Positions 6,867-50,436 of a stretch of 52,100 bases of DNA are shown here, piece after piece. Under the pieces are notes generated by a model. It was not told where the DNA came from and ran no database searches. It saw only the letters and a list, made by a program, of their open reading frames with translations. The stretch lies in contig WJMS01000066.1 in assembly GCA_014727815.1 (NCBI GenBank), forward strand, positions 1 to 52,100. Reading direction: 5' to 3'. The stretch's first letter is position 1. Each line of letters begins with the position of its first letter. Source of the stretch: a candidate division GN15 bacterium. Lineage in GTDB: Bacteria > Zixibacteria > MSB-5A5 > GN15 > FEB-12. The position numbers and the translations under genes were made by a program.

Positions 6867-6868
6867 GC

Positions 6869-9841: not shown

Positions 9842-9931
9842 CAATCTCACCAAATCTTAATCTAGCACTAACCGGCACGCAATTTAAACACTGTTATTGC
9901 GTTTCGGAGCAACCGATAACCCGGGAGAGCC

Positions 9932-11113: not shown

Positions 11114-11252
11114 GGATGTCGTTGATGATCGGTATCACCACAGCTACTCACCCGGCGCCACCGGTACCGATCATTGATTGTCATCTTTTCAATGGCAAGA
11201 GACGTCCCCAGTCATTTGACAGCACTGCATACCCAACGGAAGGTTACCGAAC

Positions 11253-12218: not shown

Positions 12219-12261
12219 AAGCTCTCGCATCGAAAGCGAGGGGCATCCGAAGCATGATTAG

Positions 12262-22366: not shown

Positions 22367-22369
22367 ACC

Positions 22370-29009: not shown

Positions 29010-29033
29010 AGACAGCAGCACTCACGAACGCTC

Positions 29034-32534: not shown

Positions 32535-32565
32535 GCTGAACGGTGTGGCGAATGGATATCGCAGT

Positions 32566-33780: not shown

Positions 33781-33812
33781 GAGAACTATAATGAGAGTGT
33801 GTGAATACTGAT

Positions 33813-34226
33813 ATGGCCAACCGATTCAATTTCAAACTCCCGGACGGCTGGCAGGACGAAACGGTCCATCGCTTCACGGGCCCCGAAGACAGCGGTGTCG
33901 AGCATGCCCTCACCCTCGTCGTCGATCGCAGCGCCGGCAGGGCCAAGGTCGAAGACTACGCCCGGGAGCGTATCGATGCCTCCATGGAGGCCATGCAGCC
34001 GTCGGAAATCCTCAACGAGGGCCCCAAACAGCTGGGCTCCGGCGTTTCCGCCTACGAAGCGGTAATCAAGTGGGTACCGGTCGACGATGAGATCATCTTC
34101 CGCAAGCTGACCTTCGTGATCGACTCCGGCACCGGCCTGATGTTTGCGGCCAACTTCTCCAAAAAGACGATCAAGACGATCGGCCACGATGTCGACCGGA
34201 TTATCGACTCGATCGTAAGCGGCTGA
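33813..34226 (+). CDS. DUF1795/DcrB-like protein (Eag-type T6SS effector chaperone candidate)
   Basis: The N-terminus MANRFNFKLPDGWQDETVHRF matches the F.LP.GWQD.T..F pattern of EagR/EagT6-type proteins. Size is about 137 aa. An alternative GTG start lies at 33801. Confidence 0.55.
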   Translation: MANRFNFKLPDGWQDETVHRFTGPEDSGVEHALTLVVDRSAGRAKVEDYARERIDASMEAMQPSEILNEGPKQLGSGVSAYEAVIKWVPVDDEIIFRKLTFVIDSGTGLMFAANFSKKTIKTIGHDVDRIIDSIVSG

Positions 34227-35353: not shown

Positions 35354-36817
35354 ATGGATATAGCACAGTATTCCTCCGACGCCCGCGCCGTCATCAAAAA
35401 CGCCCGCGAAGTGGCCGCTGCCTTTCGCTACCCGGAAATCGAGGTCGAGCACCTGCTGGTCGCCACCGTGCGGCACGAAGGCTCAAAGGTCGAGTCGATC
35501 ATGAACCAGCTCGGCAAAAGCCGGGCTTTCATCGAGTCGACCGTCGAAGACTACCTCAAGGAGCAGGCTTCCGGACGGTCCTCCTCGCGCGAAAACCTCA
35601 TGATCTCCCCCAATGTCCAGGAGGTCCTCAACGCCGCCCTCGAGGAAAAGGGCAGACTGTACGATGCCCTGGTCGAGCCGGAGCACATCTTCATAGCGAT
35701 CTTCGACCCCAAGTCGAAGCTGTCCGGCTACCTGCGTGAGAAACTGGACATCACCCGCGAGCAGATCTACAACGCTATCGCCGACAGCCAGTCACTCGAG
35801 GAGATGGCCTCTACCCCCTCGAAAAAGACCGGAACCGGTGACGCTGAGGCGCCCAAAAAGGAAGTCTCCGGCGCGCTGCGCTACTGCACCGACCTCACCA
35901 ACCAGGCTGCCGCCGGCGAATTCGACCCGTGTATCGGGCGCGACGAGGAAGTCCGGCAGGTCATTCAAATCCTCATGCGCCGCCGCAAGAACAGCCCGGT
36001 TCTCGTCGGTGGCGCCGGCGTCGGCAAAACGGCGATCGTCGAAGGTTTCGCCCAGGCCGTGGTCGACAAACGGGTGCCGAAAGCAATCCAGGACGTCCGG
36101 GTGATGGAAGTGGACATGGGCTCGATGGTTGCCGGAGCCAAGTACAAGGGCGAATTCGAAGAACGCTTCAAGGGCCTGATCAGCGATGTCGTCAAGACCG
36201 CCGGCAAGACCATCCTCTTTATCGACGAAATCCACATGCTGGTCGGCGCCGGCAATGTCTCCGGCGGGATGGATGCCGCCAACCTCGTCAAGCCTGCCCT
36301 CGCTCGCGGCCAGCTCCGGCTGATCGGCGCCACCACCGAAGAAGAGTACACCAAGTACCTCGAAAAAGACAAGGCGATGGACCGTCGGTTCGAAAAGGTC
36401 AAAGTCGAGGAACCGAGCTTCGATGACGCCGTAAGAATCGTCAAGGGTATCATCGGCAAGTACGAGAAGCACCATTCGATCAGCTACACCGAGGAAGCGA
36501 TTGTCGGCTCCATCCGCTTCGCCAAACGCTACCTCAGCGAACGGAACCTGCCCGATATCGCTCTCGATATCATCGATGAAGCCGGCTCCGAGTTCAGCGT
36601 CAAAGAAGAATTCGCCAATGAGACGATCCCGGCCATCGAACAGCAGATTACCGATCTGGAAACGCTTATGAAAGAGTGCGACGGTAAAGATCCCGGGACC
36701 GATGACGAGGCGTTCGACAAGATGTACGAGGCCTATGATGAATTCACCCGCAGCCTGGAACGACTACACGACTTCTGGGGCCACCGCGTCGAGGCCTCGA
36801 AAGGGGGCGCCGCATGA
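35354..36817 (+). CDS. tssH: ClpV/TssH N-terminal polypeptide (Clp_N domain, AAA+ D1, first part of middle region)
   Basis: Clp N-domain repeats, Walker A GGAGVGKTAIVEG, Walker B ILFIDEIH and RFEKVKVEEPS are present. It ends in the coiled-coil/linker region. Its stop overlaps the next ATG (ATGA at 36814-36817). Confidence 0.85.
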   Translation: MDIAQYSSDARAVIKNAREVAAAFRYPEIEVEHLLVATVRHEGSKVESIMNQLGKSRAFIESTVEDYLKEQASGRSSSRENLMISPNVQEVLNAALEEKGRLYDALVEPEHIFIAIFDPKSKLSGYLREKLDITREQIYNAIADSQSLEEMASTPSKKTGTGDAEAPKKEVSGALRYCTDLTNQAAAGEFDPCIGRDEEVRQVIQILMRRRKNSPVLVGGAGVGKTAIVEGFAQAVVDKRVPKAIQDVRVMEVDMGSMVAGAKYKGEFEERFKGLISDVVKTAGKTILFIDEIHMLVGAGNVSGGMDAANLVKPALARGQLRLIGATTEEEYTKYLEKDKAMDRRFEKVKVEEPSFDDAVRIVKGIIGKYEKHHSISYTEEAIVGSIRFAKRYLSERNLPDIALDIIDEAGSEFSVKEEFANETIPAIEQQITDLETLMKECDGKDPGTDDEAFDKMYEAYDEFTRSLERLHDFWGHRVEASKGGAA

Positions 36818-37917
36818 GCACCGACCGACTTCCCCTGAGTGAACTCAAGAAGGAACTCGACAAGCAGAAAGACCGCTTCGCAGCGCTCAAACAGGTCGTC
36901 GAGGAACTGCCGGACAACCACTTCATCGAGGATGCCGATGTCGCCGCTGTGATCGCCCGCCGCACCGGCATCCCGGTCGCCAAGATGATGACTGCCGAAA
37001 AGGACCGCCTGGTCAACATGGAAGCCCACCTGTCGGAGCGAATCGTGGGCCAGGAGAAAGCGATCAAAGGTGTCGCCGACGCCATCCGCAAGGCCCGCGC
37101 CGGTCTCAAACCGGCCAACCGACCGGTCGGCTCCTTCCTCTTTCTCGGCCCCACCGGCACCGGCAAGACCTACCTTCCGAAACTGCTGGCCGAGTTCCTG
37201 TTCGACGACAAAAACGCCATGGTCCGGCTCGACATGTCGGAGTTCATGGAATCGCACTCGGTCGCCAAAATGATCGGCGCTCCCCCCGGCTATGTCGGTT
37301 ATGAGGCCGGCGGCGTCCTCACCGAGGCGGTCAGGCGCAAACCATTCTCGATTATTCTCTTCGATGAGGTCGAAAAGGCCCACCCGGAGATTTTCAATAT
37401 CCTGCTGCAGCTGCTCGACGACGGCCGGCTGACCGATGGCCAGAACCGTACGGTCGACTTCTCCAACACCGTGGTCATCCTGACCTCCAACTACGCCGCC
37501 GACATCATCCTCGAGGCCGACCGCGAGAAGCGCGACGTCGACATGGACGAAATCCGCAGCTTCCTGTTCAGCAAGTTTCGGCCCGAATTTCTCAACCGGC
37601 TCAACGACATCATCGTCTACCACACCTTCACGCCCGAGCAGGTCGAGAAGATCGTCGGGCTGGAGTTCAAGCAGCTCGGCGAACTGCTCGAGGACCAGAA
37701 CATCTCGGCGGGACTGTCCGATGCCGCCCGGAAGAAGCTTGCCGCCGACGGCTACACGTTCGAGCTCGGCGCGCGGCCCCTGCAGCGGATTATCGAAAAA
37801 GAGATTATCAATAAACTGTCGGTGCGAATTATCACCGGCGATATCACGCCCGGGACCGATGTGACGGTTGATGTATCGGGCGATGAGTACGTATTTCAAA
37901 CAAAGCAACGTTCGTAA
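36814..37917 (+). CDS. tssH: ClpV/TssH C-terminal polypeptide (rest of middle region, AAA+ D2)
   Basis: Carries VIARRTGIPV...RIVGQEKAI, Walker A LGPTGTGKTYL, Walker B IILFDEVEKAH and sensor region GARPLQR. Confidence 0.85.
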   Translation: MSTDRLPLSELKKELDKQKDRFAALKQVVEELPDNHFIEDADVAAVIARRTGIPVAKMMTAEKDRLVNMEAHLSERIVGQEKAIKGVADAIRKARAGLKPANRPVGSFLFLGPTGTGKTYLPKLLAEFLFDDKNAMVRLDMSEFMESHSVAKMIGAPPGYVGYEAGGVLTEAVRRKPFSIILFDEVEKAHPEIFNILLQLLDDGRLTDGQNRTVDFSNTVVILTSNYAADIILEADREKRDVDMDEIRSFLFSKFRPEFLNRLNDIIVYHTFTPEQVEKIVGLEFKQLGELLEDQNISAGLSDAARKKLAADGYTFELGARPLQRIIEKEIINKLSVRIITGDITPGTDVTVDVSGDEYVFQTKQRS

Positions 37918-37947
37918 CGAAATCGATAGAGAGACGCGGAGGACGAC

Positions 37948-38388
37948 ATGGCGAAATTCATGCTCGGTGCGGTCGAACGGGTCAAAAAGGATGATTCCAT
38001 CCCCGTCGAACTGCTGCCGTCCAACAAGATCCTGTACGCGGCGCGTTTGAACAGCGATGAGGAAACCGACCCCACGCCGACCAAATGCACCAACCTGAAA
38101 GAAGTCTTCGAGAAGTTCCAGCCCTCATTCAATGTCGACATGGAGACCGAAGAGGGTGAGCCGATAAACGCCGATTTTGAAGTTCGCGCGATGAAGGAGT
38201 TCTCATCGAAGGAACTGATCGAGAAAAACGACTACCTCCAGGAAACCTACTACGCCAAGGAAATGATGGCCGACCTGGAGAAACAGCTCAAGAAGAACAA
38301 GGCGCTGCAGAAGATCCTCCAGGATAAGGAGAAAAAGGAAGCGCTCTTGAAAGTCGCACAGTACTACGTTGACCTTCTCAGCGAGTAA
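37948..38388 (+). CDS. tssB: contractile sheath small subunit TssB (VipA-like)
   Basis: A 146-aa acidic helical protein with the F.KF.P.F ... F....EF.SKELIEKNDYL pattern of TssB. GGAGGA RBS. It sits immediately upstream of tssC. Confidence 0.7.
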   Translation: MAKFMLGAVERVKKDDSIPVELLPSNKILYAARLNSDEETDPTPTKCTNLKEVFEKFQPSFNVDMETEEGEPINADFEVRAMKEFSSKELIEKNDYLQETYYAKEMMADLEKQLKKNKALQKILQDKEKKEALLKVAQYYVDLLSE

Positions 38389-38405
38389 GGATGAGGTGAT
38401 CGGTA

Positions 38406-39833
38406 ATGGCTGACGAAGAAAAAAAAGAAATGGAACAGCAGGCCGAACAGGCCGCACCCGCCCCCGCCGAGAAGACGGTTGAAAGGATATCCGACGACGA
38501 GTTTGCGTCCATTCTCGGCGACCAGTTCGGCGACTTCAGCAAGCTCGCCTCGCTGCTGCCGTCGTTTAAGACGGCCGATGGCGACCTGGTCCGCGGGGTC
38601 GAATGGCTCGACCCGAAAAAGGACTTCCAGCGCAAGGAATTCCTGACCAAGAAAGACTTCGCCAAACAGCGCAAGCTGCTGGCGCAGCGGCTGCAGATCT
38701 GGATCGACGCCCTCGCCTCGGGCGATGATCCCGATTCGATCCGCAAGTCACTCAACGAAAAGGCGACCGCCAAGGAAGCCAATCTCGAAAAGAACATGAA
38801 GAAGGTCCACCGGGCCAGCCGCGAACTGGAGATCACCTACCGCGGCATCGCCCAGTTCTTCGCCAACGCCCAGCAGGAACCGGATGAAAAAGTCAATGCC
38901 TGGTTCTCCAATGTCGGTGTCGAGGAGCTCAGCGACCCCGACGACCGGGAGAAGTTCGATGCGATCTGCAAGGAAATCGCCGACCTCTTCCGCGAGTGGG
39001 ACATCACCGAGGCCTTCTCCATGTGCGTTATCCCGGGCTGGCTCGGCAGCGTCGAAAACATCGACACCTTCGCCCGCACCCTCGGCATGCCCAACAAGGT
39101 CCAGATCATGACCGACCTGCCGAACTTCGAGAAGTTCGAAGAGGTCATGGACATGCTCGACGACCCCAGCTACGCCAACCTGGCCGGCATCGATGCTTTC
39201 AAGCAGTACATGTCGGTCTTCGCCAACTACGTCCTGGCCCGCAACGCCAACCAGTTCGAGGATGACGATATGTGGGTGCCGCCGTCGGCGGCAATCGCCG
39301 GCAAGATGTACCAGGGTGACCTCACCCAGGGCATGCAGCAGCCGATGGCCGGGTTTAAGTACGGCAAGCTCAACGATGCCAAGTATCTGCGGTTCAAGGC
39401 CAACCAGCCCGACGCCAGCAAGATCAACGAAAAAGGCGTCAACCCGATTGTCGACTTCAAGGGCACCCCGGTCGCCATGGGCTCGTCGACCCTGTACACC
39501 AAGGAGACCTTCAACAACTACTCCATTCGGCGAACCTATGACTACGTCTACAAGACGCTGCGCAACTACTTGAACAAGCAAACCTTCACGGTTATCGATC
39601 AGAAATTCGTCGACACCATGCGCCGGGATATCGACACCTTCATGAAGGCGATCACCGGCGCCGACAACATCCTCCAGGATTACAAGATCGATATCTTCGC
39701 CGACGAAGAGATGCGTAAACGGCAGGAGGTCGATGTCAAGGTGAGCCTGAATCCCAAGTATCCGGCGAAGTCGTTCAACATCGAATTCGTCGCCTGGGGC
39801 GAAGGCGAACAGACCAACGTCAAGGACAAGTAG
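38406..39833 (+). CDS. tssC: contractile sheath large subunit TssC (VipB-like)
   Basis: A 475-aa protein placed directly after tssB and before hcp. The C-terminal half resembles the sheath handshake/gp18-like core. GAGGTG RBS. Confidence 0.8.
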   Translation: MADEEKKEMEQQAEQAAPAPAEKTVERISDDEFASILGDQFGDFSKLASLLPSFKTADGDLVRGVEWLDPKKDFQRKEFLTKKDFAKQRKLLAQRLQIWIDALASGDDPDSIRKSLNEKATAKEANLEKNMKKVHRASRELEITYRGIAQFFANAQQEPDEKVNAWFSNVGVEELSDPDDREKFDAICKEIADLFREWDITEAFSMCVIPGWLGSVENIDTFARTLGMPNKVQIMTDLPNFEKFEEVMDMLDDPSYANLAGIDAFKQYMSVFANYVLARNANQFEDDDMWVPPSAAIAGKMYQGDLTQGMQQPMAGFKYGKLNDAKYLRFKANQPDASKINEKGVNPIVDFKGTPVAMGSSTLYTKETFNNYSIRRTYDYVYKTLRNYLNKQTFTVIDQKFVDTMRRDIDTFMKAITGADNILQDYKIDIFADEEMRKRQEVDVKVSLNPKYPAKSFNIEFVAWGEGEQTNVKDK

Positions 39834-39871
39834 CCCGCCCGGACCTTCGGGCACTGCAATCCGAGAAAAAT

Positions 39872-39907
39872 GCGGAAAAGGTGATCGCCCCATGTCACCT
39901 TTTCCGC
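39872..39907. other. perfect 13-bp stem-loop after tssC
   Basis: GCGGAAAAGGTGA (39872-39884) pairs with TCACCTTTTCCGC (39895-39907), with a 10-nt loop. There is no U-tract on the plus strand; a T-rich tail appears only on the minus strand. Confidence 0.5.
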
Positions 39908-40012
39908 GTTCCTGAATGAAGCCGTTGGGGAAACGGCAGCAAGCACGGAAAACCTGGAATCTAAAACGCTAACCGAATAGCGACCGTTTCTAACACATGA
40001 AGGAGCATCCGC

Positions 40013-40417
40013 ATGGCACGCAGACCGACTGTAGAAATTGATGGCGTTCCGTACAAAAACGTCTACTCCGTCAAGTACTCGCTGTATACGGCGAAAGACG
40101 AAACCGGCCGGCCGTCCGACCGCGCCCACGCCGGCGTAATCGAGGTCGTCCGTGAATCCGACGAAACCACCGATATCGCTCGCTGGGCAATGGACTCCTC
40201 CAAGCCGAACTGGAAAGCCGGCAAGGTCACCTTCAAAAGTCCCGATGACTCAACCATGAAGGAACTGACCTGGGAAGAGGGCTTCATCACCCACTATGAA
40301 GAACTGATCCCGCACATCAAGCACACGCCGGACGAGCAGATTTACGAGGTGTTCCACATCTCCTGCCGCAAGCTCGTGATCGGTGACGCCGAAATCGACA
40401 ACCGGTGGGAAGAATAA
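40013..40417 (+). CDS. hcp: Hcp tube protein (TssD), Bacteroidota-like type
   Basis: A 134-aa protein. The pattern IDG..Y....V.YSLY...DETGRP....H.G.I.V..ES......W......W.G.V.F...D....K.L.WEE.F...Y.E ... ISC..L.IG...IDNRW is typical of T6SSiii-type Hcp. AAGGAG RBS. Confidence 0.75.
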   Translation: MARRPTVEIDGVPYKNVYSVKYSLYTAKDETGRPSDRAHAGVIEVVRESDETTDIARWAMDSSKPNWKAGKVTFKSPDDSTMKELTWEEGFITHYEELIPHIKHTPDEQIYEVFHISCRKLVIGDAEIDNRWEE

Positions 40418-40427
40418 CCAGGTTGTT

Positions 40428-40461
40428 GCGACCGGGCCGCGCCAAAACCCGGCCCGGTCGC
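40428..40461 (+). other. perfect 12-bp GC-rich stem-loop after hcp
   Basis: GCGACCGGGCCG (40428-40439) pairs with CGGCCCGGTCGC (40450-40461), with a 10-nt loop. It starts 11 nt after the hcp stop and has no U-tract. Confidence 0.5.
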
Positions 40462-40489
40462 CACTTCCACAGGTAATGGACGGACGACC

Positions 40490-42214
40490 ATGACAGACGG
40501 TGGCAACATCATCAAAATGCCGACTGAGGTGAAGGTCTCTGTCGGCGGCCACGAGATTAGCCTGGAAATCTCCAGCATCGAACTCAACCAGTATATCGAC
40601 CGGCACCACGAACTGATCGTCACCGTGATCCTCTCTCAGCAGATGACGGACAACCAGGAAATGGCCGATATCAAGCGCTATCTCGATATGCTCGGACAGA
40701 CCGTATCCCTTTCAGCTTCGTCCGAGAAAGAGCGCATGACGAACGATGAAGACGAGCTGCAGTTTGTGGGAATTGTCACCAATGTCGAAGCAGTCAACGA
40801 AATCGACGGCACCAACGTCGTTCGCATTCACGGCAGCAGCCCGACTGTCCGTATGGACGGCGGCCCGCGCATCCGCACCTACCAGCAGAATTCACCCGCT
40901 GACATAGTCGAGAGTATCGTGAGCTCGGCCGCCGTGACCCGGGGAAAACTCGAGAGATTCGGCAGTAAACGGGAATATACGTTGCAGTATAACCAGAGCG
41001 ACTACGAATTCCTGATGCGCCTGGCCACCGGTCACGGCATGTTCGCGTACTACGACGGCAAGGAGTTCCATGTCGGCAAACCGACCTCCAAAGACGCCGT
41101 GGAACTCAACTGGCGGCAGTCGCTCGCCGGATTCTCGGTCGACCTCGGAACGGCGCCCGGAGAGTACGCCGTTGGCACCTACGACTACGCCCAGAACAAG
41201 ACCTTCCTGGCCAGTTCGACCAAAAGCCGTACCGGCTCGGCCGTCTCCGGATTCCTTGCCAATTCTCCCAAAGCGTCGAAAAACATCTTCGGTGACGAGC
41301 CCGGCTACATGGTTCACGTCACGCACAGCGCCAGCCAGAGCGAGGCCACCGATGCCGCCGTGAAAGCCAAGTCCCGCGCGCTCGGCCGCATGATCGTCGG
41401 CAAGGGAACCTCCTATGTCCCCAGTGTGCGGGTCGGACGGTGCGTGCAGGTCAAAGGTATGGTCATGCTCGACGGCATGTATCTGGTTAGTTCGGTCAAA
41501 CACCGCTACGAAAGCGGCGGCTACTACAACACCTTCGAATGCACCCCCCTCGACCTCGCTTTCCCGCAGTTCCGCGGCCACCGGGACAAGATAACGGACC
41601 TCCATGTCGCCGTCGTGCAGGATGTCCAGGATCCGGAGAAACTCGGACGGGTCAAGATCTACTTTCCCTGGCTGGATATTGACAGCGTCTGGGCGCGCAT
41701 GGCCGTGCCGCACGCGGGTCAGTCCTGGGGCTGGGTCTGCCTGCCCGAAATCGATGACGAAGTTCTGGTCGGATTCGACCGCGGCGACCCGGAACAGCCC
41801 GTTATCCTCGGCGCCCTGTACAATTCCAAAGCCAAACCGCCGTCCGAAGCCACTGCCTCCCCACCCGAGGTTAAGGTCCTGCAGACCAAAGGCGGTAACA
41901 AGATCCTGCTCAGCGACAAACAGGGCTCGGAAGAGATCATTCTCACCACCAGGGATGGCCAGAACAATATTGTATTGAGTATGTCCGGCCCCGGTATTAC
42001 CATTGAGAGCAAAGGTGACCTGACCTTCAAGGGCAAAGGCGTCAGTATCGAGGGCGATACGATCAAGCTCAAGAGCCAGAAAGATACCACCGTCGAGGCC
42101 GGCGGAAATCTCAAGGCCGAAGGGAAAATGAACCTGGAGACCAAGGCCGGCATGAACTACCAGGCTGAAGGGATGATGGTCAAGATCAAGGGACAGATGA
42201 TCAATCTCAATTAG
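40490..42214 (+). CDS. vgrG: VgrG spike protein (TssI; gp27/gp5-like)
   Basis: The gp5 OB-fold signature GRVKIYFPWLD...WARMAVPHAGQSWGWVCLPEIDDEVLVGFDRGDPEQPVILGALYN is followed by a short beta-helix repeat region. No C-terminal effector domain. Confidence 0.85.
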   Translation: MTDGGNIIKMPTEVKVSVGGHEISLEISSIELNQYIDRHHELIVTVILSQQMTDNQEMADIKRYLDMLGQTVSLSASSEKERMTNDEDELQFVGIVTNVEAVNEIDGTNVVRIHGSSPTVRMDGGPRIRTYQQNSPADIVESIVSSAAVTRGKLERFGSKREYTLQYNQSDYEFLMRLATGHGMFAYYDGKEFHVGKPTSKDAVELNWRQSLAGFSVDLGTAPGEYAVGTYDYAQNKTFLASSTKSRTGSAVSGFLANSPKASKNIFGDEPGYMVHVTHSASQSEATDAAVKAKSRALGRMIVGKGTSYVPSVRVGRCVQVKGMVMLDGMYLVSSVKHRYESGGYYNTFECTPLDLAFPQFRGHRDKITDLHVAVVQDVQDPEKLGRVKIYFPWLDIDSVWARMAVPHAGQSWGWVCLPEIDDEVLVGFDRGDPEQPVILGALYNSKAKPPSEATASPPEVKVLQTKGGNKILLSDKQGSEEIILTTRDGQNNIVLSMSGPGITIESKGDLTFKGKGVSIEGDTIKLKSQKDTTVEAGGNLKAEGKMNLETKAGMNYQAEGMMVKIKGQMINLN

Positions 42215-42600
42215 TGAGCGATATGGATAGAATCGCGCTGCCGGTGACATTACGCGATGGTTACTTGAACCGGGCCGAGTCGGTCGAAGAATCGATCTTC
42301 CATTCGGTCGGCCTCCTGCTCTGTACCCGTCCGGGCCAGATGGAGTTTCTGCCCGAGTACGGCTGCGATGTCTGGAAAATGGAATTCTCCGACCTCAACG
42401 TGGCCAACAAGGGCGAGGTACGCGCCAGTCTCCGCAACGCTATCGACAAGTTCGAGCCCCGCCTCTTCAACGTCTCCGTCTCGTTCACACCGCATACCGA
42501 TTCCGCCTCACACGTCCTCGGCATGTCGGTCAAGGTAACCGGCAACTACCGCGATGCCGGCGAGGAAAAGAAATTCGAAGCCACCTATGCGTTAGGATGA
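42214..42600 (+). CDS. tssE: baseplate wedge protein TssE (GPW/gp25 family)
   Basis: Carries the gp25-like core SIFHSVGLLLCTRPGQMEFLPEYGCDVW. The GTG at 42214 overlaps the vgrG stop. An alternative ATG lies at 42223. Confidence 0.75.
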   Translation: MSDMDRIALPVTLRDGYLNRAESVEESIFHSVGLLLCTRPGQMEFLPEYGCDVWKMEFSDLNVANKGEVRASLRNAIDKFEPRLFNVSVSFTPHTDSASHVLGMSVKVTGNYRDAGEEKKFEATYALG

Positions 42601-42601
42601 T

Positions 42602-44260
42602 ATGAGCGATTCCCGAGCCCGCACTCCGCAGGATATCTTCACCGCCATGCACCGGGAACTCCGGTCATTCAACCGCGACATCCCGGAATCACTCGACCGG
42701 CTGGACCCCATTCTCAAGCTGCTCATGCAGCTCTACGCCAGCCAGCTCTCGCACATCGACAAACGGGTTGATCACCTCTGGGATGTCGCCACGGCCGCCC
42801 TGATCAAGTCGCTCTACCCCGAGGCCAAGCGCTGGCCGGTGCCGGCCTACACCGTCATGCACTGCGCCCCGCTCGACCCGGTGGTCGAGACCGATCGCCA
42901 GGTCCGCTTCTTCTTTCAGGAGACGCGCGAGGGCGGCCAGATGCACTTCTTCTCGCCCCAGCGTACCGAAAAGCTGATCAATGCCACCGTAAAGCGCGTC
43001 CTGCTTCGCTCCGGCGAACAGATTTACGACCTCACTCCGGGGAAGGCCGACGCGATGAATTCCGGCGGCATATCCTGGGCCGAACGAAACAGCATTTATG
43101 TGGCCGTTGAGTATGGCGGCAACCCGGCCGACATGACCGGCTCACATCTCTTTCTCGACGGCGATATCGCCGCCCTGCGTCAACTGCGCTGGGGCTACTG
43201 GTACCCCTCGAGTGCGGCCGGTGGCTTCTACGACGACTCCCGTTTCTGCCCGGCGCTGAGATTCGACCTGGAGTCACTGGTTTCCCCCGATGATAGCCCG
43301 TCGACCAACTGGGGCGGCCTGCGCGACAGCAGTCACTTGTTCTCTCGCCTCGAGAACCACTTCGTCACCCTGCCCGAGGCGTTCTGCGCGACCTGGCAGA
43401 TGGGTCCCCCGGAGCCCGACCTGGCCCGCCTGCTCGGCATCAATGGCATCATTATCGATGACGGCGCCGAACAGCACTACTGGCTTCGCATCGACCTCCC
43501 CCCATCCGGCGACAAGAGCACGCTCGCCCGACCGATCGACCTGCGCTTCGGCTGCGTCGTGGTCACCAACCGCAACGAACTGACCCTGTTCAAGCACACC
43601 GGTGACAACCGGCTGATAGAAATCGAACTCCCCGATGAGCTCGACAGTATTCTCGGAATTACGTCGGTTACCGACTCCACCGGCAAGACCTACCAGCCGC
43701 GCCACCAGGTACAAAGCGAACCCGTGCAAACTTCGTACGCCCTCGAAGAACGCGACGGCAAACTGGTCGTATGGTTCGACTTTACATCGAGCATGGAAGC
43801 GCCCCCCGAATCACTGACCGTGACCTACGCGGTGACATCCGGCACCGCCGCCAACGGGATCGGTCGCGGCGAGATCAGCGACCTCTATGAAAACCATCCG
43901 GGTATCGACAGCGCCGAAAACGTCCTGCCCACTACCGGGGCCGTCCCGGCCAAAACCGAACAGGAGATAATCGACGAGGTCACCCTGCGCCTGCGCGCCC
44001 GCGACCGGGCGCTCAGTTTCCCCGAGCTGGCCCGTTGGGCCCAGACTTTCGACAAGCGTATCAAGTCAGCCACCTGCGAGAACGGCATTCAACGGACTCC
44101 GACCGGCATCCGCCGCTGCATCGACATATCCGTTGCGATTACCAAAGAAGACTTCTGCTCCGACGATGAGATAAACCTGCTGGCCGATCGGCTCGAACGT
44201 TTCCTGAAATCCCGAGCCCCGGTCAACACCCAGTTTCAGGTGAAGGCGCAATCGGCATGA
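42602..44260 (+). CDS. tssF: baseplate subunit TssF (gp6-like)
   Basis: A 552-aa protein. The N-terminal helical segment followed by LYPEAKRWPVPAYTVMHCAP resembles the TssF LYP...P(S/A) motif. It lies between tssE and tssG. Confidence 0.7.
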   Translation: MSDSRARTPQDIFTAMHRELRSFNRDIPESLDRLDPILKLLMQLYASQLSHIDKRVDHLWDVATAALIKSLYPEAKRWPVPAYTVMHCAPLDPVVETDRQVRFFFQETREGGQMHFFSPQRTEKLINATVKRVLLRSGEQIYDLTPGKADAMNSGGISWAERNSIYVAVEYGGNPADMTGSHLFLDGDIAALRQLRWGYWYPSSAAGGFYDDSRFCPALRFDLESLVSPDDSPSTNWGGLRDSSHLFSRLENHFVTLPEAFCATWQMGPPEPDLARLLGINGIIIDDGAEQHYWLRIDLPPSGDKSTLARPIDLRFGCVVVTNRNELTLFKHTGDNRLIEIELPDELDSILGITSVTDSTGKTYQPRHQVQSEPVQTSYALEERDGKLVVWFDFTSSMEAPPESLTVTYAVTSGTAANGIGRGEISDLYENHPGIDSAENVLPTTGAVPAKTEQEIIDEVTLRLRARDRALSFPELARWAQTFDKRIKSATCENGIQRTPTGIRRCIDISVAITKEDFCSDDEINLLADRLERFLKSRAPVNTQFQVKAQSA

Positions 44261-45171
44261 CAACTCGTCCGGAACGCCTCATGCCCGACTTTTGCAGCCG
44301 GCGCCATCCCTTCCATGCCGCCACGGCGATCGTCACCCTGATGAAGCTCGATGTCGACCTGTCTCGCATTCGCCTGCTGGCGGTCGGCACACACCAGAAC
44401 TATCGCGGCGAAGTTCATGAACAGGAGCCCGACCCCGGCGCCACGCTGCGCCCGGACACCACCGTCACCCTCCACGTCGGCTGTGAAAGCCCGGTCGACA
44501 TGGTACCCTTCCAGTTCTTCTATGGCGTCGGCGGCCGGCGTGACCGCTCCGGTGACTGGGAAGGCAATGCCAGGTCACTCATGGCGCCCTTCGATGCCGC
44601 CGTTCAACGCTACCGGGCCCTGACCGACTACCACGCCATGCGCTACCGGCTGGGGGTGATCGATGAAGACCACTTGCGCCGCTACTTCGAACTGTTCGCC
44701 TTTGAATCGACCGAAACAACCGCCTCCCTGTCGGATCGACTCCTGTGGGCAGCCCTGCTGCCGTCGTTCCATCACTGGGCCGGCAATCCCGATCTGGTCG
44801 AGAAGGCGGTCACCTTTTTTCTCGGCTACCCGTGCCGCATCATTGAAAACGTACCGGCGCGATACAACATTCCCGATCACCTCTGGTTCCGACTTGGCCA
44901 ATCCAACACCCGCCTCGGCGGAGAGACCGCCCTGGGCCGCTCCTTCGTCGAGGCTGATTCATGCTATAAAGTGATACTGAGCGATGTCGCCCCCGAGGAT
45001 GTCCCGTTGTACCTCGAGGGTGGTCGCGGCCGTCGACGCCTGGAAGCCCTGCTCGACATCTGCATGCCCGGCAACCTCGCGCATCAAATCGAAATCCGCG
45101 CGCGTCGAACCGGCTTGCGCCCCGGCGACAAGCAACGCGCCGCATATCTGGGCTATACCAGCCACGTGTGA
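44257..45171 (+). CDS. tssG: baseplate subunit TssG (gp7-like), tentative
   Basis: ATGA overlap with tssF, 304 aa, and a C-terminal RLGQSNTRLGGETALGRSF resembling the LG-rich TssG end. The call rests mainly on synteny. Confidence 0.55.
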   Translation: MTTRPERLMPDFCSRRHPFHAATAIVTLMKLDVDLSRIRLLAVGTHQNYRGEVHEQEPDPGATLRPDTTVTLHVGCESPVDMVPFQFFYGVGGRRDRSGDWEGNARSLMAPFDAAVQRYRALTDYHAMRYRLGVIDEDHLRRYFELFAFESTETTASLSDRLLWAALLPSFHHWAGNPDLVEKAVTFFLGYPCRIIENVPARYNIPDHLWFRLGQSNTRLGGETALGRSFVEADSCYKVILSDVAPEDVPLYLEGGRGRRRLEALLDICMPGNLAHQIEIRARRTGLRPGDKQRAAYLGYTSHV

Positions 45172-45246: not shown

Positions 45247-46692
45247 ATGACAGACTTTAACTTATATTCAGTCAACTGGCAGGATGGGATGCTCATCACG
45301 CAGCAGCATCTCAAGGATCAGGAACGTTATGTCCGCGATCTCACCCGCTGGTACAGCGTCACCGCGGGCGACCGCTACGGCCTCGTCAAACGCGCGGCCG
45401 ACAAACCGGCTCTCTCGATGAATTTCTCGGTCGCCGGCTCCCGGTTACGGGTGGAACTGAACCGATGCCAGGCGGTCACTCCCGGCGGTCACTATATCGA
45501 AATCAATGAAGGCAACCGCAGCACCCTGGCAGCAGAGACCGAACTCGGCGAGGCCACCACCCCGGTTTACATCCGGGTCAACCCGGAAAGCCGCCAGCCG
45601 GTCGGCGACCCCGACCCGCAGGAAGCGGTCCCCCGCCTGCCCTACCAGATCAGCAGTTGCGAACTCTCCCTTGGCCAGAAACCATCGGCGCCGGCCGGCG
45701 AAGTTCTCCAGGTCGCCCTGCTCGACCAGTCCGGTGGCGAAGTAAAACTGGCTCCCGGCTACTTCGCGCCCTGCCTCAACATTACCGCCGACGAACAACT
45801 CGCGGGCCGGGCGGTCGATCTGCGCAATCGCCTCGAGAACCTGCTCTCGCTCGCCTCGCGCGCCTACAGTGCGATAGCCACCGCCGGCGCGCTCTCGGAT
45901 CAGAGTTCCAGCCTGCAGGTCGCGTTCAAGGAAACGATGTATCATTTCGGCTATCACATGGCCGCCTCGCTCGATCAGTTCCAGACCGGCCGCAACGCCG
46001 GCCACCCGATCGAGATGATTATCTTCTTCAAGCGCCTCTTCCGGGTCTTCTCGACGCTGCTCAACTTCCGCCCGGAACTGAAGGACTATCTCAATGAGCG
46101 CTTTTTCGTCAAGGAACAGCAGTCCGATGTCGGTCAGTTTATGGCCTCGGTCGACGCCTTCCTGCTGGCCGAGTACAATCACGAAGATATCGGCGGCCAG
46201 GTCGCCATGATTGACAGCACCGTCACCACCCTGCGCGGCATCCTCGGTTTCCTCGCCCAGCTTCGCCGTGAACAGCTGGGCGATCAGGCCGTCGCGACCG
46301 ATAGTATGACCTATGGCGGCAAGACCTATCGCCTGGCGGCGTACGATGCCGCCCAGACCGAACAGGTCGGCGAATTGAGCTACCTGATGATACAGTTCCA
46401 GTCGGCCCGGCCGATCAGCGACACGGTGATCCTGATGTCCAAGCAGCTCTTCTCGATCGCCGAATGGAACAACATGCAGGTCCGTATCGGCCTCAACGAG
46501 GCGCGCGGACTCGGCGAGACCGACCCGGTCGATGTCGACACCGTCACCTACGGCGACAAGGTCGCTCTGCACGCCCAGGACATGCTGCAGTCGCCGTCGG
46601 TTGGCAAGATCACGCTTATCTTCCGGGGCGCCCGCGAACCGGAGAAACTTTCGGCGCTGCATCAGTCGGATTTGTTCGTATATGCTGTGTAA
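45247..46692 (+). CDS. tssK: baseplate-membrane connector TssK
   Basis: The N-terminus VNWQDGMLITQQHLKDQERY matches the TssK V.W.EGM.L.PQHFQQ.DRY signature. Size is 481 aa. Confidence 0.65.
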   Translation: MTDFNLYSVNWQDGMLITQQHLKDQERYVRDLTRWYSVTAGDRYGLVKRAADKPALSMNFSVAGSRLRVELNRCQAVTPGGHYIEINEGNRSTLAAETELGEATTPVYIRVNPESRQPVGDPDPQEAVPRLPYQISSCELSLGQKPSAPAGEVLQVALLDQSGGEVKLAPGYFAPCLNITADEQLAGRAVDLRNRLENLLSLASRAYSAIATAGALSDQSSSLQVAFKETMYHFGYHMAASLDQFQTGRNAGHPIEMIIFFKRLFRVFSTLLNFRPELKDYLNERFFVKEQQSDVGQFMASVDAFLLAEYNHEDIGGQVAMIDSTVTTLRGILGFLAQLRREQLGDQAVATDSMTYGGKTYRLAAYDAAQTEQVGELSYLMIQFQSARPISDTVILMSKQLFSIAEWNNMQVRIGLNEARGLGETDPVDVDTVTYGDKVALHAQDMLQSPSVGKITLIFRGAREPEKLSALHQSDLFVYAV

Positions 46693-46710: not shown

Positions 46711-47637
46711 GTGGCACTTGAGATAAAGACATACATCGATAACCTCTTCGCCTACCTCGACCGCTTCGAAAACTCATACGAGCAGTTCGAGACCGAGGCG
46801 TTCCTGCAGACCTACAACGGCATCATCGCCGTCTTCCAGGCTCTTCGGCAGCAGCGCAACGAGGCGATCGAGGTCGACCAGTACTTCCTCTCGAAGATTC
46901 GTCAGAATCCGCTGACCAGCTCCGATTTACGGCAGCTGACCGTCCAGGTGTTGATCACCTTCTTTGAATCGGAAGCCGACACCGACGGCCAGTCAGCGCA
47001 GGCCTACGGCCACGTCCGCGGCCTTCGCCCGGTCAAGCAGGACATCCCCTTTTTCGAGAATCACCTGGTTCCCTTGTTGTTCGCCGATGGCGGCCTGAAC
47101 AACAACTTCCGCCTGCGCAAATTCCTGGTCGATGAAATCGCTCGCTACATGAACAAGTTCGGTCGGAAACTGCAGCCGAACCTCTCCCCCGAGGATTTCC
47201 AGGCGCTCAGCGATCCGCTCAAGATTCTCGAGCTGGCCCGTCGTCGCCGTGAACTCGGCGAGCAACTCATCGCTGATCGTGACAGCCTCGAATTTCATCT
47301 GCAGCGCATCGAGTTCTTCAACAAGCTCGGCGCCAGAAACCGGCTGCTCGACCAGTTCCTGCGCGAATGGGACTACATCAAAACGACTGATTTCTGGGCC
47401 AAAGTCAAAACGGCTGTCGGTGAACTGGGTGGCAAGATCCGCGGCGCCTTCTCCAGCTTCGGCTACCTGCGCCTGATCCTCACCCAGCGCAACCCGGCCT
47501 ACCTGCTGTACGGCGTCGTGATCGTTTTGTTCATCTTCCTGGCGATCTACGTACCACTGGCCTGGCAGGATCACACCAATGACAAGCTGCACGAATTCCA
47601 GGAGCGAGCCAACACCCTGCAATCGAGCGGCAAATAG
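46711..47637 (+). CDS. uncharacterised tail-anchored inner-membrane protein (helical cytoplasmic domain plus single C-terminal TM)
   Basis: About 260 predicted helical residues are followed by AYLLYGVVIVLFIFLAIYVPLAW (47497-47565) and a 23-aa tail. GTG start 18 nt after tssK. I recognise no family motif. Confidence 0.6.
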   Translation: MALEIKTYIDNLFAYLDRFENSYEQFETEAFLQTYNGIIAVFQALRQQRNEAIEVDQYFLSKIRQNPLTSSDLRQLTVQVLITFFESEADTDGQSAQAYGHVRGLRPVKQDIPFFENHLVPLLFADGGLNNNFRLRKFLVDEIARYMNKFGRKLQPNLSPEDFQALSDPLKILELARRRRELGEQLIADRDSLEFHLQRIEFFNKLGARNRLLDQFLREWDYIKTTDFWAKVKTAVGELGGKIRGAFSSFGYLRLILTQRNPAYLLYGVVIVLFIFLAIYVPLAWQDHTNDKLHEFQERANTLQSSGK

Positions 47638-47664
47638 CGACATGAACAAAGGCAGCAAGTAACC

Positions 47665-49875
47665 GTGGGCATCGGCAAGATATTCGGATTTCTCAAGAAA
47701 GGCGCCAAAGCCGCCTCGAAAAGCAAAGGCAAGGACGCCGGCGGCATTGAATGGCCCGATGGTATCCGGGTCGGCCTCTACGGCCACGCCAACTCCGGCA
47801 AGACCGTCTACTACACGGTCCTCAACGAAGAGTGCAAGATCGCCAAGGACCTGCAAATCTCCGTTACCGACAACGCCACGTCCGGTGAATTCCTCGCCAA
47901 TTACCGGGCCATCTGGGGCCTGGGCGTCACCAGCGATGTCGGCACGATGGTCGACCAGCGCGGCGAACAGCGCTTCCCCGACCCGACCGCCAGCGGCAAG
48001 GTCCTCCAGTTCAATGCCATCCTCGATCGCTCCAAAAAGGTCTCGGTCGTCTCGTACGACTATCCCGGCGACGCCATCTCGATTTCCGAACGCACCGACC
48101 TCACCGAAACCGTCACCGACTTCATGGGCGGCGCCGATGGCCTCCTGTTCTTTTTTGATCCGAAAACTTTGCAGGCCGAGCTGCAGACCCAGGCGCATGT
48201 CGCCTCGTTTGTCGCCATGCTCGAACGCCTTGCCCCGCTGAAAGCCCGCCTCCCGATCCCGATCGCCCTCGTGATCACCAAGTCCGACCTGCTCGATGGG
48301 TTCAGCGGCGACAACCAGGTCGTGCTCGTGCCGGGCGACCTCGAACATATCCTGGCCGAAGATTTCGAACGTTTCCTCGACGAGGTTCTCTCCAGCAACC
48401 AGATTGCGTCCAACCCGGCCTGGGCCGGCAGTGTCCGCAATATTTTGGTCAAGCTGCGCGAGTTTCTTAAAGTCGTCGTCGGGCGCACGCTTGATTTCCA
48501 GATCTTCTTTGTCTCGGCCACCGGCACAACCCCGGAGAAAATCGGGACCGATGTCGGCCGGTCGATTTACAAGCCACCCCAGCGAATCACCCCGGTCGGT
48601 GTCAAGGAACCGTTTTACTGGCTGCTCAATACCGTGCTGCGCAACCGGCGTATTTCGGTCTTCCGCAAGATATCGAAGTATGCCGCGATGCTCTCCATCA
48701 TCTGGATCATCGTCTTCTCCGTGCCTTTCCTCTGGCACTTCAGCTACCTGCTGCCGAAAGCGACCGATGTTGAGGAAAGTGTGATCGAGCAGTACGATGG
48801 CAACGTCTTCAGCAGCAGTGTCGACGATCGCCGCCGCATCAAAAATGCGTACGACCGATACGAACGCTCCTGGACCGTCAAGTGGTTCTTCCCGCGCTTC
48901 ATACCGCCGGCCGACCGCGTCCAGGCTTTTTACAGCAAGTTTAACACGCAGGAAGCCCTGGCCCAGCTCGATCGGGTGATCAACCGCATGGCCTCGGTCG
49001 TGCAGGACAGCACCCTCTGGCCGAAACTGAATCCGAGCGACTCCTCGATCCACCTCGATACCGAGCATGAACAGATCCTCGCCGACCTGGAATCGTATCA
49101 CAGCGGCGACGAGTCTTCGCCGCTCTACGCCCGCAGCGACCGCGCCCTCGAATACTGGAAGCTGCTTGAGCGCTTCGTCGCCAATCGCGCCGACACCGCC
49201 GCCTACAATGCGATAGTCGAGCAAACCCGGTTCAACGAGCGCACCTATGGTCGCGATCTGAGCGCGGCCGAGAAGACCCTCGCCCAGGCGCTCGTAACCA
49301 ATCTCAAGGTCAAGACCGAGCGGAAAGTACAGCAAGAGGTCGCCCAGCGGGCCGGTGTCGAGCTGGGCGATCTGATCAAACGGATCAACAGCAACGAGCG
49401 CGCCTCCTATCGGCTCGGGGAAGCTGTCACCGAACTGCGCCGTCTGCGGTCGCAACTCGATCCCGGCGTCGATGCCGAAAGCATCCGCGCGATCGACCGC
49501 TACCTCAGCGAGGCCGACAAGTGGAATCGGCGCCGCGTCTTCGAATACAAAGTTGAAACGATCCCCGGCCAGGGCCATCTGCACATCGAGGTCACCTCCG
49601 GCGGCAAGGATGCAACCTGGTCGGACCAGTCCCAGATTCTGCAGGGCTGGGAGTACTCGTTGAGCTGGAAGGTCGGCGATGACGTCCATATCGCCATCGA
49701 CACCCTCGGCGCCCCGGAGATGTGGGGCAAATCGGCCAGTGACAAGAAAATCATGACCGGCAGGTATTCGCTGTTCAATCTCGACGGTGAGATCAGCTTC
49801 GACAATATCGGCAAGACCGTGACCATTCGCTTCAATCCGCCGTTGAACAGCATGCTTCCGGAACTACGAAAGTAA
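47665..49875 (+). CDS. uncharacterised membrane-anchored P-loop GTPase with large periplasmic domain
   Basis: G1 GHANSGKT (47782-47805), G3 DYPGD (residues 132-136), G4 TKSD (205-208) and G5 SAT (284-286). One TM, YAAMLSIIWIIVFSVPFLWHFSYLL, at 48679-48753. A 373-aa C-terminal region is helical and then beta-rich. The N-terminus is basic and amphipathic. GTG start. Confidence 0.65.
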   Translation: MGIGKIFGFLKKGAKAASKSKGKDAGGIEWPDGIRVGLYGHANSGKTVYYTVLNEECKIAKDLQISVTDNATSGEFLANYRAIWGLGVTSDVGTMVDQRGEQRFPDPTASGKVLQFNAILDRSKKVSVVSYDYPGDAISISERTDLTETVTDFMGGADGLLFFFDPKTLQAELQTQAHVASFVAMLERLAPLKARLPIPIALVITKSDLLDGFSGDNQVVLVPGDLEHILAEDFERFLDEVLSSNQIASNPAWAGSVRNILVKLREFLKVVVGRTLDFQIFFVSATGTTPEKIGTDVGRSIYKPPQRITPVGVKEPFYWLLNTVLRNRRISVFRKISKYAAMLSIIWIIVFSVPFLWHFSYLLPKATDVEESVIEQYDGNVFSSSVDDRRRIKNAYDRYERSWTVKWFFPRFIPPADRVQAFYSKFNTQEALAQLDRVINRMASVVQDSTLWPKLNPSDSSIHLDTEHEQILADLESYHSGDESSPLYARSDRALEYWKLLERFVANRADTAAYNAIVEQTRFNERTYGRDLSAAEKTLAQALVTNLKVKTERKVQQEVAQRAGVELGDLIKRINSNERASYRLGEAVTELRRLRSQLDPGVDAESIRAIDRYLSEADKWNRRRVFEYKVETIPGQGHLHIEVTSGGKDATWSDQSQILQGWEYSLSWKVGDDVHIAIDTLGAPEMWGKSASDKKIMTGRYSLFNLDGEISFDNIGKTVTIRFNPPLNSMLPELRK

Positions 49876-49905
49876 TAACGCACGCAGAGCATAAGGATGT
49901 CAGCT

Positions 49906-50436
49906 ATGGCAGGCAGACTACGTTCCCGCAGGTGGGTCAGCGTCGCGGCGATCGGACTCGCCCTGATGGCGCTTACCGTCAACACCACCGCAGCCACCTT
50001 CCAGCTCCCCGCCGGCACCCCGGTGGCCGTCACCTTCGCCGCCAACCAGCCGATCAGCTCCGGCGATGTCATCAGCGGTGTCCCGCTGGTCATCACCCTC
50101 GCCGAACCGATCAAGCTGGGCGACCGGGTGCTGGTTGAAGCCGGCGCCGAGGGCAAGGCGATGGTTACGGATGTCAAGAAGGCATCGGCGCCCGGCAACC
50201 CCGGCATGATCCGGGTCGAGTTTCAGGAGATCGATACCAAGGGTGAGTTTGCGACTACCGATGGTTCCTCGATCAAACTGACCGGCGCCGTCGAGATGGA
50301 AGGTAAAGGCAAAAAGACCCTCGCCTTCATTACGATCATCGGCATTCTCTTCATCAAGGGCGGCCAGGGCGAAATCCCGGCCGACAGCACCTACAGCGCC
50401 GAAGTAGCTGAAACGATCGTATTGACCAGCCCGTAA
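49906..50436 (+). CDS. small secreted/periplasmic beta-rich protein, unknown function
   Basis: Signal-like MAGRLRSRRWVSVAAIGLALMALTVNTTAA, with no lipobox Cys. AAGGA lies 8 nt before the ATG at 49906, so the track start 49897 sits too close to the RBS. It is the last gene of the T6SS transcription direction. Confidence 0.5.
   Translation: MAGRLRSRRWVSVAAIGLALMALTVNTTAATFQLPAGTPVAVTFAANQPISSGDVISGVPLVITLAEPIKLGDRVLVEAGAEGKAMVTDVKKASAPGNPGMIRVEFQEIDTKGEFATTDGSSIKLTGAVEMEGKGKKTLAFITIIGILFIKGGQGEIPADSTYSAEVAETIVLTSP

Follow-up and report, generated by a model that had tools for sequence, protein, structure and literature searches.

The origin of the anchoring of the contractile type VI secretion system (T6SS) tail to the envelope is an open question, and one that bears on a T6SS locus from a candidate division GN15 bacterium of the Zixibacteria (GenBank assembly GCA_014727815.1, contig WJMS01000066.1). 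The window, which is the whole stretch of 52,100 nt analysed here, holds a complete T6SS gene set 3′ of a trp/aro operon, as recognised with Pfam and NCBIfam models, and its TssC and Hcp match PF17541 and PF17642, which we take to be the models of the Bacteroidota-type sheath and tube. Pfam and NCBIfam assigned none of the large open reading frames (ORFs) of the window to TssJ, TssL or TssM, and no T6SS membrane-complex Pfam family was found in any ORF between 27.9 and 50.4 kb, although it was not confirmed which of TssN/Q/O/P/R have Pfam models. The published T6SS membrane anchors (TssJLM of T6SSi and TssNQOPR of T6SSiii) and a further, suspected one in T6SSiv look unrelated to each other. 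At the usual position of membrane-complex genes, downstream of tssK, lies a gene for a membrane-anchored GTPase (Table 1), which a sequence-only reading of this DNA had singled out as occupying the place where TssM would be expected. This protein is a short TssM-like variant with new partners, accompanied by T6SS tail genes of Bacteroidota type, and on balance we think it probable, with some reserve, that in Zixibacteria and related uncultured phyla it serves as central inner-membrane subunit of a distinct module that anchors the T6SS to the membrane.

Within the contigs of one genome per species, 119 stretches encode a relative of the GTPase, and 80 of these loci were examined for gene order. 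Both tssK and the gene for a 308-aa protein are located upstream of the GTPase gene in 64/65 loci with at least 2.6 kb of upstream sequence, while a gene for a 179-aa protein is located downstream in all 70 loci with downstream sequence, and the entire order from clpV through tssK, the 308-aa gene, the GTPase gene and the 179-aa gene is conserved in related genomes. An exhaustive profile search added deeper relatives of 617–1053 aa, which have the amphipathic N-terminus, the G domain, the transmembrane (TM) helix and the C-terminal beta domain in common, with helical regions of varying length. Four of these deeper clades (16–26% identity) are all found in T6SS loci, with TssK followed by a protein of ~310–340 aa and a GTPase of 780–830 aa, and the 308-aa protein is kept there at 24–27% identity. 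On the 3′ side a protein of ~160–170 aa comes next in two of the clades, a 282-aa gene comes first in the third, and a ~166-aa gene is on the opposite strand in the fourth. The TssC and TssD proteins of the deep clades, where recorded, are of the PF17541 and PF17642 type. P0206, an ordinary DO-GTPase2 related to the family far more weakly, was found outside T6SS loci, and hence the core family is T6SS-specific and the superfamily is not. The link with T6SS made by the sequence-only reading is borne out by the co-occurrence with tssK, and the core family was not found outside T6SS loci. Besides Zixibacteria, some of the genomes carry the label Krumholzibacteriota or Latescibacterota, and many are described only as 'uncultured bacterium'.

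Conserved motifs and domain layout of the GTPase

The GTPase gene has a GTG startcodon, which is credible since the orthologues align from residue 1. There are 279 homologues of ~730–740 aa, with the named ones mostly labelled Zixibacteria, and in public annotation they are only called 'GTPase domain-containing' or 'hypothetical'. Conservation was assessed in an alignment of 32 orthologues (49–79% identity), and motifs were counted family-wide in 157 full-length members. The G1, G3, G4 and G5 motifs are located at the positions claimed by the sequence-only reading, and their patterns are present in 155, 157, 154 and 148 of the 157 members, respectively. Invariant among the 32 orthologues are G40, N43, G45 and K46 of G1, G135 of G3, K206, D208, L210 and G212 of G4 and S284 of G5 (within FQIFFVSATG), with D132 and T205 conserved in at least 90%. 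A likely G2 threonine (FPDPT108), absent from the motif list of that reading, is also conserved among the orthologues and in the deep clades. The motif-bearing membrane GTPase ORF is real, well past chance. An 898-aa antisense ORF (46993–49689, − strand) overlaps the genes for the 308-aa protein and the GTPase, and was taken as a GC-rich shadow ORF because the conservation lies in the proteins encoded on the + strand.

An AlphaFold2 (AF2) model of the full GTPase, built with the orthologue alignment (predicted local distance difference test score, pLDDT, of 78), consists of the G domain, a continuous helix spanning residues 314–376, a helical domain and a beta domain. Foldseek searches with the full-length model returned GTPases only, with atlastin, Der, Npa3, G-alpha, SR-beta, Arl and Ras at a probability of ~1.0; the Ras and Arl matches (E ~1e-3) are those of general TRAFAC folds. 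The G domain of the model spans ~270 aa, with inserts at residues 86–104 and 213–275, and Pfam searches at E ≤ 0.1 gave no match of the window GTPase to Ras, Arf or Roc. The Pfam family DO-GTPase2 (PF19993) covers residues 36–219 with 28.4 bits, against a gathering score of 27. Of the label 'Ras-like' given to the protein earlier, the GTPase fold of the TRAFAC class stands and a compact Ras-type domain does not, and the family is more exactly described as DO-GTPase. An NCBIfam scan of the GTPase, the 308-aa protein and the 179-aa protein gave nothing useful.

The basic N-terminal segment follows the pattern xxFKxFKKGAKAAxKxKGKK in the orthologues and MALFKFIANIFKKIKKLF in the deep clades, and residues 6–17 are modelled as a helix, at low pLDDT, with a hydrophobic moment of 0.5–0.67. 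The sole hydrophobic peak of the protein in a Kyte-Doolittle plot is at residues 335–365, with a net charge of +6 before and −4 after it, a bias which indicates a cytoplasmic G domain and a periplasmic location for the last 373 aa. This TM segment lies within the continuous helix of the model. The N-terminal TM hairpin of TssM (TM1–TM2) is not present, as both the model and the hydrophobicity have the basic amphipathic helix there instead. A separate AF2 model of residues 364–736 (pLDDT 89) shows a helical domain followed by a beta-sandwich, and the length of the helical periplasmic domain differs between clades. The sequence-only reading was thus correct on the amphipathic N-terminus, which is kept across the family, on the single TM helix supported by hydrophobicity and charge bias, on the missing hairpin, with one hydrophobic segment only, and on the C-terminal region being first helical and then beta-rich. 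The cytoplasmic NTPase, the TM helix and this periplasmic region give the protein its TssM-like layout.

Relation to DO-GTPases and TssM

By profile comparison, the nearest family of the G domain is DO-GTPase and not TssM. When 26 diverse members of the family were searched against Pfam, DO-GTPase2 matched all 26 at E ≤ 1 (best E = 8.3e-13), followed by IcmF-related_N (PF14331) in 18, MMR_HSR1 in 6, GTP_EFTU and Gtr1_RagA in 2 each and G-alpha in 1, the last four being the only classical GTPase families listed for these members. With hhalign, the match to DO-GTPase-like groups reached a probability of 100% and E ~1e-40, versus E ~1e-7 for TssM. DO-GTPases (Double-GTPase 1/2, PF19975/PF19993) were described only in conflict systems, where they are proposed to be switches near membranes and to dimerise via their G domains (Kaur et al. 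2020, PMC7159879). Like the window GTPase they belong to the TRAFAC class, and some are membrane-anchored, but the large periplasmic domain and the lock into T6SS loci set the window GTPase apart. DO-GTPases are also paired with GAP1 in conflict systems, whereas the window GTPase has neither a GAP1 partner nor a zinc ribbon; a Pfam search of the window neighbours found no GAP1 domain, and GAP1-N2 was only seen in one deep clade (L082). Finally, DO-GTPases have a conserved Walker B glutamate (DxxGE), which is lacking in the DYPGD of the window GTPase. The residue following DYPG is D, K, N or R in the Zixibacteria orthologues, while the deeper clades have DYKGE, and this hints that intrinsic hydrolysis may be altered or lost in the subfamily of the window.

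The affinity to DO-GTPases allows for an alternative in which the gene belongs to a conflict system (anti-phage or abortive) hitch-hiking in T6SS loci, with no role in secretion. This would agree with DO-GTPase2 being the best Pfam family, given its description in conflict systems only (PMC7159879), and with the presence of weaker relatives such as P0206 outside T6SS loci. However, hitch-hiking defence genes vary among related genomes, whereas the position of the GTPase gene is fixed in 64/65 loci and in the deep clades, and there is no effector-like variable gene alongside, nor a GAP1 gene in the window, which makes this explanation very improbable.

For the comparison with TssM, a match of the GTPase-family alignment A1 to the single E. 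coli TssM sequence was weak (61 columns around G4, probability 3.7%), and therefore a TssM profile was built from 14 diverse sequences of Gamma-, Beta- and Alphaproteobacteria and Campylobacter (L081, L193–L204), with plasmid tblastn matches in place of a set from Enterobacterales only (67–99% identity). In this 14-sequence alignment, the TssM NTPase carries G1 GPPGAGKTT, G3 DTAG and G4 TKADLIAGF; the G4 motif of the GTPase family is ITK[AS]D[IL]LxGF, and the spacing of 73 residues from G3 to G4 is the same as in TssM. The IcmF-related_N matches in the 18 members were weak (best E = 9e-5), and made it the second most consistent Pfam family. Comparison of N-domains by hhalign gave probabilities of 94.8% for A3, a very diverse alignment of the GTPase family (E 5.5e-8, 139 columns), 92.7% for A1 (E 4e-7, 185 columns) and 93.7% for the 157-sequence profile (E 2e-7, 166 columns), and full-length comparison gave 89% for A3 (E 2.5e-6, 139 columns) and 77% for A1 (E 2e-5, 185 columns). 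Reversed and 20 column-shuffled controls scored 12–21, with probabilities of at most 0.7%. The aligned columns run from G4 through the helical insert that precedes G5 to the G5 strand itself (FQIFFVS versus GVYFTS in TssM), and extend to the TM helix in the A1 runs and in relaxed mode, where residues 422–435 of E. coli TssM are the partner. In the relaxed alignment the P-loops of both proteins are paired, as are the TM helix and TM3 of TssM.

The periplasmic halves did not show such a relation. A Foldseek search with residues 364–736 gave nothing significant, with C2 domains as best and weak match to the beta-sandwich (E = 0.09), and the periplasmic TssM domains IcmF-related (PF06761), IcmF_helical (PF21070) and IcmF_C (PF06744) were neither matched by the window GTPase nor present in the list of families for the 26 members. 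Pfam calls TssM's C-terminal domain 'C2-like', a resemblance to the beta-sandwich of the GTPase which has no statistical support here. The cytoplasmic half of the GTPase, comprising the G domain and, in the A1 and relaxed alignments, the TM helix, probably shares ancestry with the NTPase-TM3 part of TssM, while the periplasmic half can at most be called analogous. The sequence-only reading had left the choice between a functional analogue and a very divergent homologue; divergent homology is the probable answer for the first half only. Its contrast of a small-GTPase-type with an IcmF-type nucleotide domain fails, as TssM itself has G1, G3 and G4 motifs, IcmF-related_N is matched by 18/26 members and the N-domains align at a probability of 93–95%. 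The GTPase-type motifs of TssM, together with its hhalign matches around G4 to non-T6SS DO-GTPase-like proteins (probability of up to 94% over 52 columns), rather suggest that the nucleotide domain of TssM belongs in or near the TRAFAC/DO-GTPases.

Could the protein then be a true TssM orthologue over its full length, diverged too far to be recognised? Its place next to tssK, the shared succession of domain types and the probable homology of the NTPase-TM part would fit, as would a weak collinear profile match of the beta domain to the last ~100 residues of TssM (P = 0.09). Yet there is no TM1–TM2 hairpin, the periplasmic region is about half the size, with PF06761, PF21070 and PF06744 lacking among the families listed and periplasmic hhalign probabilities below 1%, DO-GTPases are far closer (E ~1e-40) than TssM (E ~1e-7), and the partners are similar to neither TssL nor TssJ. 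No full-length alignment to IcmF/TssM was obtained, and we regard such orthology as improbable.

Partner genes and surrounding locus

Table 1. Features of the T6SS locus and of the GTPase. Positions are those of the window, and residues those of the GTPase.
Feature	Position	Strand	Residues	Evidence
PAAR	27957-29009	+		Pfam/NCBIfam
T6SS core clpV-tssG, as block	35354..45171	+		Pfam, NCBIfam
clpV, split in two	35354-37917	+		Pfam/NCBIfam
tssB	from 37948	+		Pfam/NCBIfam
tssC (PF17541)	from 38406	+		Pfam/NCBIfam
hcp (PF17642)	from 40013	+		Pfam/NCBIfam
vgrG	from 40490	+		Pfam/NCBIfam
tssE	from 42214	+		Pfam/NCBIfam
tssF	from 42602	+		Pfam/NCBIfam
tssG	from 44257	+		Pfam/NCBIfam
tssK, baseplate subunit, directly upstream of module	45247..46692	+		TIGR03353 E = 1e-16, PF05936
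308-aa partner, helical cytoplasmic domain and C-terminal TM anchor	46711..47637	+		ORF
736-aa membrane-anchored GTPase (short TssM-like protein)	47665..49875	+		ORF, homologues, conserved synteny
Basic amphipathic N-terminal segment, putative membrane-binding helix	47665..47733	+	1-23	Conserved pattern, model, hydrophobic moment
G domain of the DO-GTPase family (TRAFAC class), with helical insert from G4 to G5	47764..48573	+	34-303	Pfam PF19993, Foldseek, hhalign
G1 / P-loop GHANSGKT (K46)	47782..47805	+	40-47	Alignment
G3 / Walker B DYPGD	48058..48072	+	132-136	Alignment
G4 TKSD plus LLDGF	48277..48306	+	205-214	Signature common to TssM (TKADLIAGF), centre of the hhalign match
G5 SAT	48514..48522	+	284-286	Alignment
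Single TM helix, N-in / C-out	48679..48753	+	339-363	Kyte-Doolittle peak and charge bias
All-helical periplasmic domain	48820..49527	+	386-621	AF2 models
C-terminal periplasmic beta-sandwich	49534..49833	+	624-723	AF2, pLDDT ~90
179-aa partner, Sec signal, beta-rich, periplasmic	49897..50436	+		Signal peptides, synteny

The 308-aa protein has a TssL-like topology, and its family shows no similarity to E. coli TssL, nor to the neighbour of a non-T6SS DO-GTPase; a Pfam scan of 31 members gave no consistent match. The 179-aa protein and its orthologues have type I (Sec) signal peptides without a lipobox cysteine, and are therefore not lipoproteins; its family likewise had no consistent match in a Pfam scan.

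The deep-clade loci L082, L126 and L127 carry additional genes around the module. In L082, a gene for a 979-aa GAP1-N2 protein (12504–15443) is located between the T6SS GTPase and the 179-aa-like gene, which connects the GTPase family of these T6SS loci with the DO-GTPase/GAP1 pair. In L126 (9987–13528) and L127 (13082–18094), genes for FHA, PP2C phosphatase, Ser/Thr kinase and CsgG-like proteins flank the GTPase module, and resemble the threonine-phosphorylation control of proteobacterial T6SS; none of these is near the module in the window.

Neighbours of this kind bring in the main rival to an anchoring role, a transmembrane regulatory switch of which the periplasmic domain would sense envelope or contact signals and the GTPase would control when and where the T6SS is assembled, a role akin to that of the TagQRST-PpkA-Fha-TagF pathways or of polarity GTPases. 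It is consistent with the conservation of all G motifs of a nucleotide-dependent switch, with the GAP1-N2 gene directly after the GTPase in L082 and the FHA, PP2C and kinase genes beside the module in L126 and L127, and with the proposal of DO-GTPases as switches in membrane-proximal conflict systems (PMC7159879). Against this, no other candidate for an anchor spanning the inner membrane was detected in the locus, position and order of the module are invariant over deep divergence, as for core structural genes, and the NTPase-TM layout and its probable ancestry are common to the structural protein TssM. A purely regulatory function therefore seems unlikely to us, and regulatory and structural roles are not mutually exclusive.

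The clpV gene of the window consists of two overlapping ORFs, 35354–36817 (+ strand, 487 aa, Clp_N, AAA D1 and lid) and 36814–37917 (+ strand, 367 aa, AAA_2 D2 and D2-small), and this split looks genuine rather than a sequencing frameshift, since the same 487 + 367 aa split is found in a Zixibacteria relative (L207). Further upstream (27957–34226, + strand) is a module encoding PAAR, a 1166-aa protein of which one segment weakly resembles OmpA, a BamB/PQQ_2-like protein and a DcrB-like protein, which is kept 5′ of clpV in the same relative (L207, 8897–15395). The 1166-aa family has 214 homologues, and is also found after VgrG in a T6SSi-type locus (L208, 10001–13471, with VipB and T6SS_HCP) of a metagenome-assembled genome (MAG) labelled Aminicenantes. 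The 1166-aa protein was considered as outer-membrane part of the complex and rejected, as an effector or accessory function is more likely from its location after PAAR or VgrG in both Zixibacteria and T6SSi-type loci; the module is probably an effector or accessory cassette common to different T6SS types. A genome scan with the 1166-aa OmpA-like protein alone found nothing.

At the other end, a 524-aa leucine-rich-repeat (LRR) protein is encoded at 50519–52093 (− strand), with an N-terminus resembling a lipoprotein signal (LLVVWGC), and tblastn detected a similar convergent LRR gene 3′ of the 179-aa gene in 42/80 related loci, a count that generic LRR similarity may inflate. This protein may be a partner in the outer membrane, or a neighbour with no relation to the module. 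The complete operon of trpE, trpD, trpC, trpF, trpB, trpA and DAHP synthase genes (20331–27826, + strand) abuts the T6SS locus, and an AcrB/HlyD/OEP efflux set is located further upstream (12262–17933, − strand).

A candidate anchoring module and known T6SS membrane complexes

The proposed anchoring module would unite the GTPase with two further proteins, the tail-anchored one of 308 aa and the periplasmic one of 179 aa. The G domain may be held at the membrane from both ends, by the N-terminal amphipathic helix, replacing the TM1–TM2 hairpin of TssM, and by the TM helix, thus mimicking TssM, of which the NTPase sits between TM2 and TM3. It could dock the TssK/TssG baseplate, probably jointly with the 308-aa protein, with the nucleotide state gating assembly or firing, possibly via G-domain dimerisation. 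The TM helix is predicted to run on into a periplasmic helical stalk and the C-terminal beta-sandwich, which may form oligomers and meet the 179-aa protein or partners in the outer membrane, giving a conduit for the Hcp/VgrG needle.

Several observations weigh against this proposal or against the kinship with TssM. With a 179-aa partner that is not a lipoprotein, the proposal does not account for the anchoring to the outer membrane, and GTP hydrolysis may be weak, as the Zixibacteria clade lacks the DO-GTPase glutamate. All organisms with the GTPase are uncultured MAGs, and there is one exception to the conserved gene order, L017 (CP070766.1, Zixibacteria bin25, 1–12800), in which the GTPase and 179-aa genes are detached from other T6SS genes and the genes upstream of the GTPase are on the opposite strand, representing either a split locus or a rearrangement. 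The homology to TssM is drawn solely from comparison between hidden Markov models (HMM-HMM). The match of the window GTPase itself to IcmF-related_N (E = 0.004, 16.9 bits) is below the cut-off of 25, and searches of PDB sequences with the A1 and A3 profiles gave noise and coiled coils, leaving the full-length TssM chain in the library (6ixh_P) unmatched. Non-T6SS DO-GTPase-like proteins also match TssM around G4, with probabilities of 54–94% over 34–52 columns, and hence part of the TssM signal is at the level of the superfamily. In the periplasm, the 373-aa region is about half of that of TssM, the hhalign probability between the periplasmic halves of the GTPase family and TssM is 0.3–0.6%, and the 50 Foldseek PDB matches listed for the C-terminal model do not include a chain of TssM.

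The presence of an anchor of this type would define a further type of T6SS membrane complex, place the nucleotide domain of TssM within the DO-GTPase/TRAFAC GTPases, and provide a small and tractable model (736 aa, one TM helix) for this much-debated domain. A wider scenario, which we put forward tentatively and consider doubtful, is that the family is a surviving minimal or ancestral TssM, with the NTPase-TM part of TssM derived from a membrane-anchored DO-GTPase, and a TssM-type anchor already present on tails with Bacteroidota-type TssC and Hcp, later replaced by TssNQOPR in Bacteroidota and expanded in Proteobacteria. If true, this would link the membrane complexes of T6SSi and T6SSiii, which are now regarded as unrelated, tie the anchoring of T6SS to GTPase-centred conflict systems, and mean that TssM acts as a GTPase-like switch dependent on dimerisation. 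No paper connecting T6SS with Zixibacteria, Krumholzibacteriota, Latescibacterota or DO-GTPases was found in the library searched, which is not proof of absence.

Among known systems, TssM/IcmF (PF14331, PF06761, PF21070, PF06744) is the closest in layout to the window GTPase. Both genes adjoin tssK in T6SS loci, as seen for tssK-tssL-tssM of T6SSi in a Rhodovulum plasmid locus, and both proteins have a P-loop NTPase with G1, G3 DxxG and G4 TKxD plus LLxGF, followed by a helical insert, a G5-like hYFxS strand, a TM helix and a periplasmic helical region ending in a beta-sandwich. TssM interacts with TssJ, TssL and TssK. The two proteins differ in length (~1130–1320 aa for TssM, versus 736 aa), in the TM1–TM2 hairpin of TssM, for which the window GTPase has a basic amphipathic helix, and in their partners, which are TssL and TssJ for TssM and lack homology to either in the window, where the small periplasmic one is not lipidated. 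A strongly divergent member of the TssM family in a non-canonical subtype is Francisella PdpB, the IcmF-like protein of T6SSii, which has kept the TssM-like length and is not known to have a Walker A motif, whereas the window GTPase has kept the nucleotide motifs and lost or replaced the rest. TssM of Agrobacterium has been reported to be an ATPase (PMC3346141).

The T6SSiii of Bacteroidota has the same TssC and Hcp model types (PF17541, PF17642) as the window locus. Its membrane-complex genes likewise come after tssG-tssK (PMC10781749). T6SSiii, which does without TssJLM, is stated to be restricted to Bacteroidota (PMC10781749), and the window locus extends sheath and tube genes of Bacteroidota type to Zixibacteria, to MAGs labelled Krumholzibacteriota and to further uncultured bacteria. 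Of the T6SSiii membrane proteins, TssQ, TssO and TssP are purely periplasmic apart from an N-terminal TM helix, TssN has five TM helices and no NTPase, and TssR is a lipoprotein (PMC10781749); these topologies are unlike those of the window proteins, no similarity to any of the five was detected, and none of them has a GTPase. TssN serves as the cytoplasmic docking hub for TssK (PMC10781749), which is the role that we propose for the G domain of the window GTPase, the 308-aa protein, or both.

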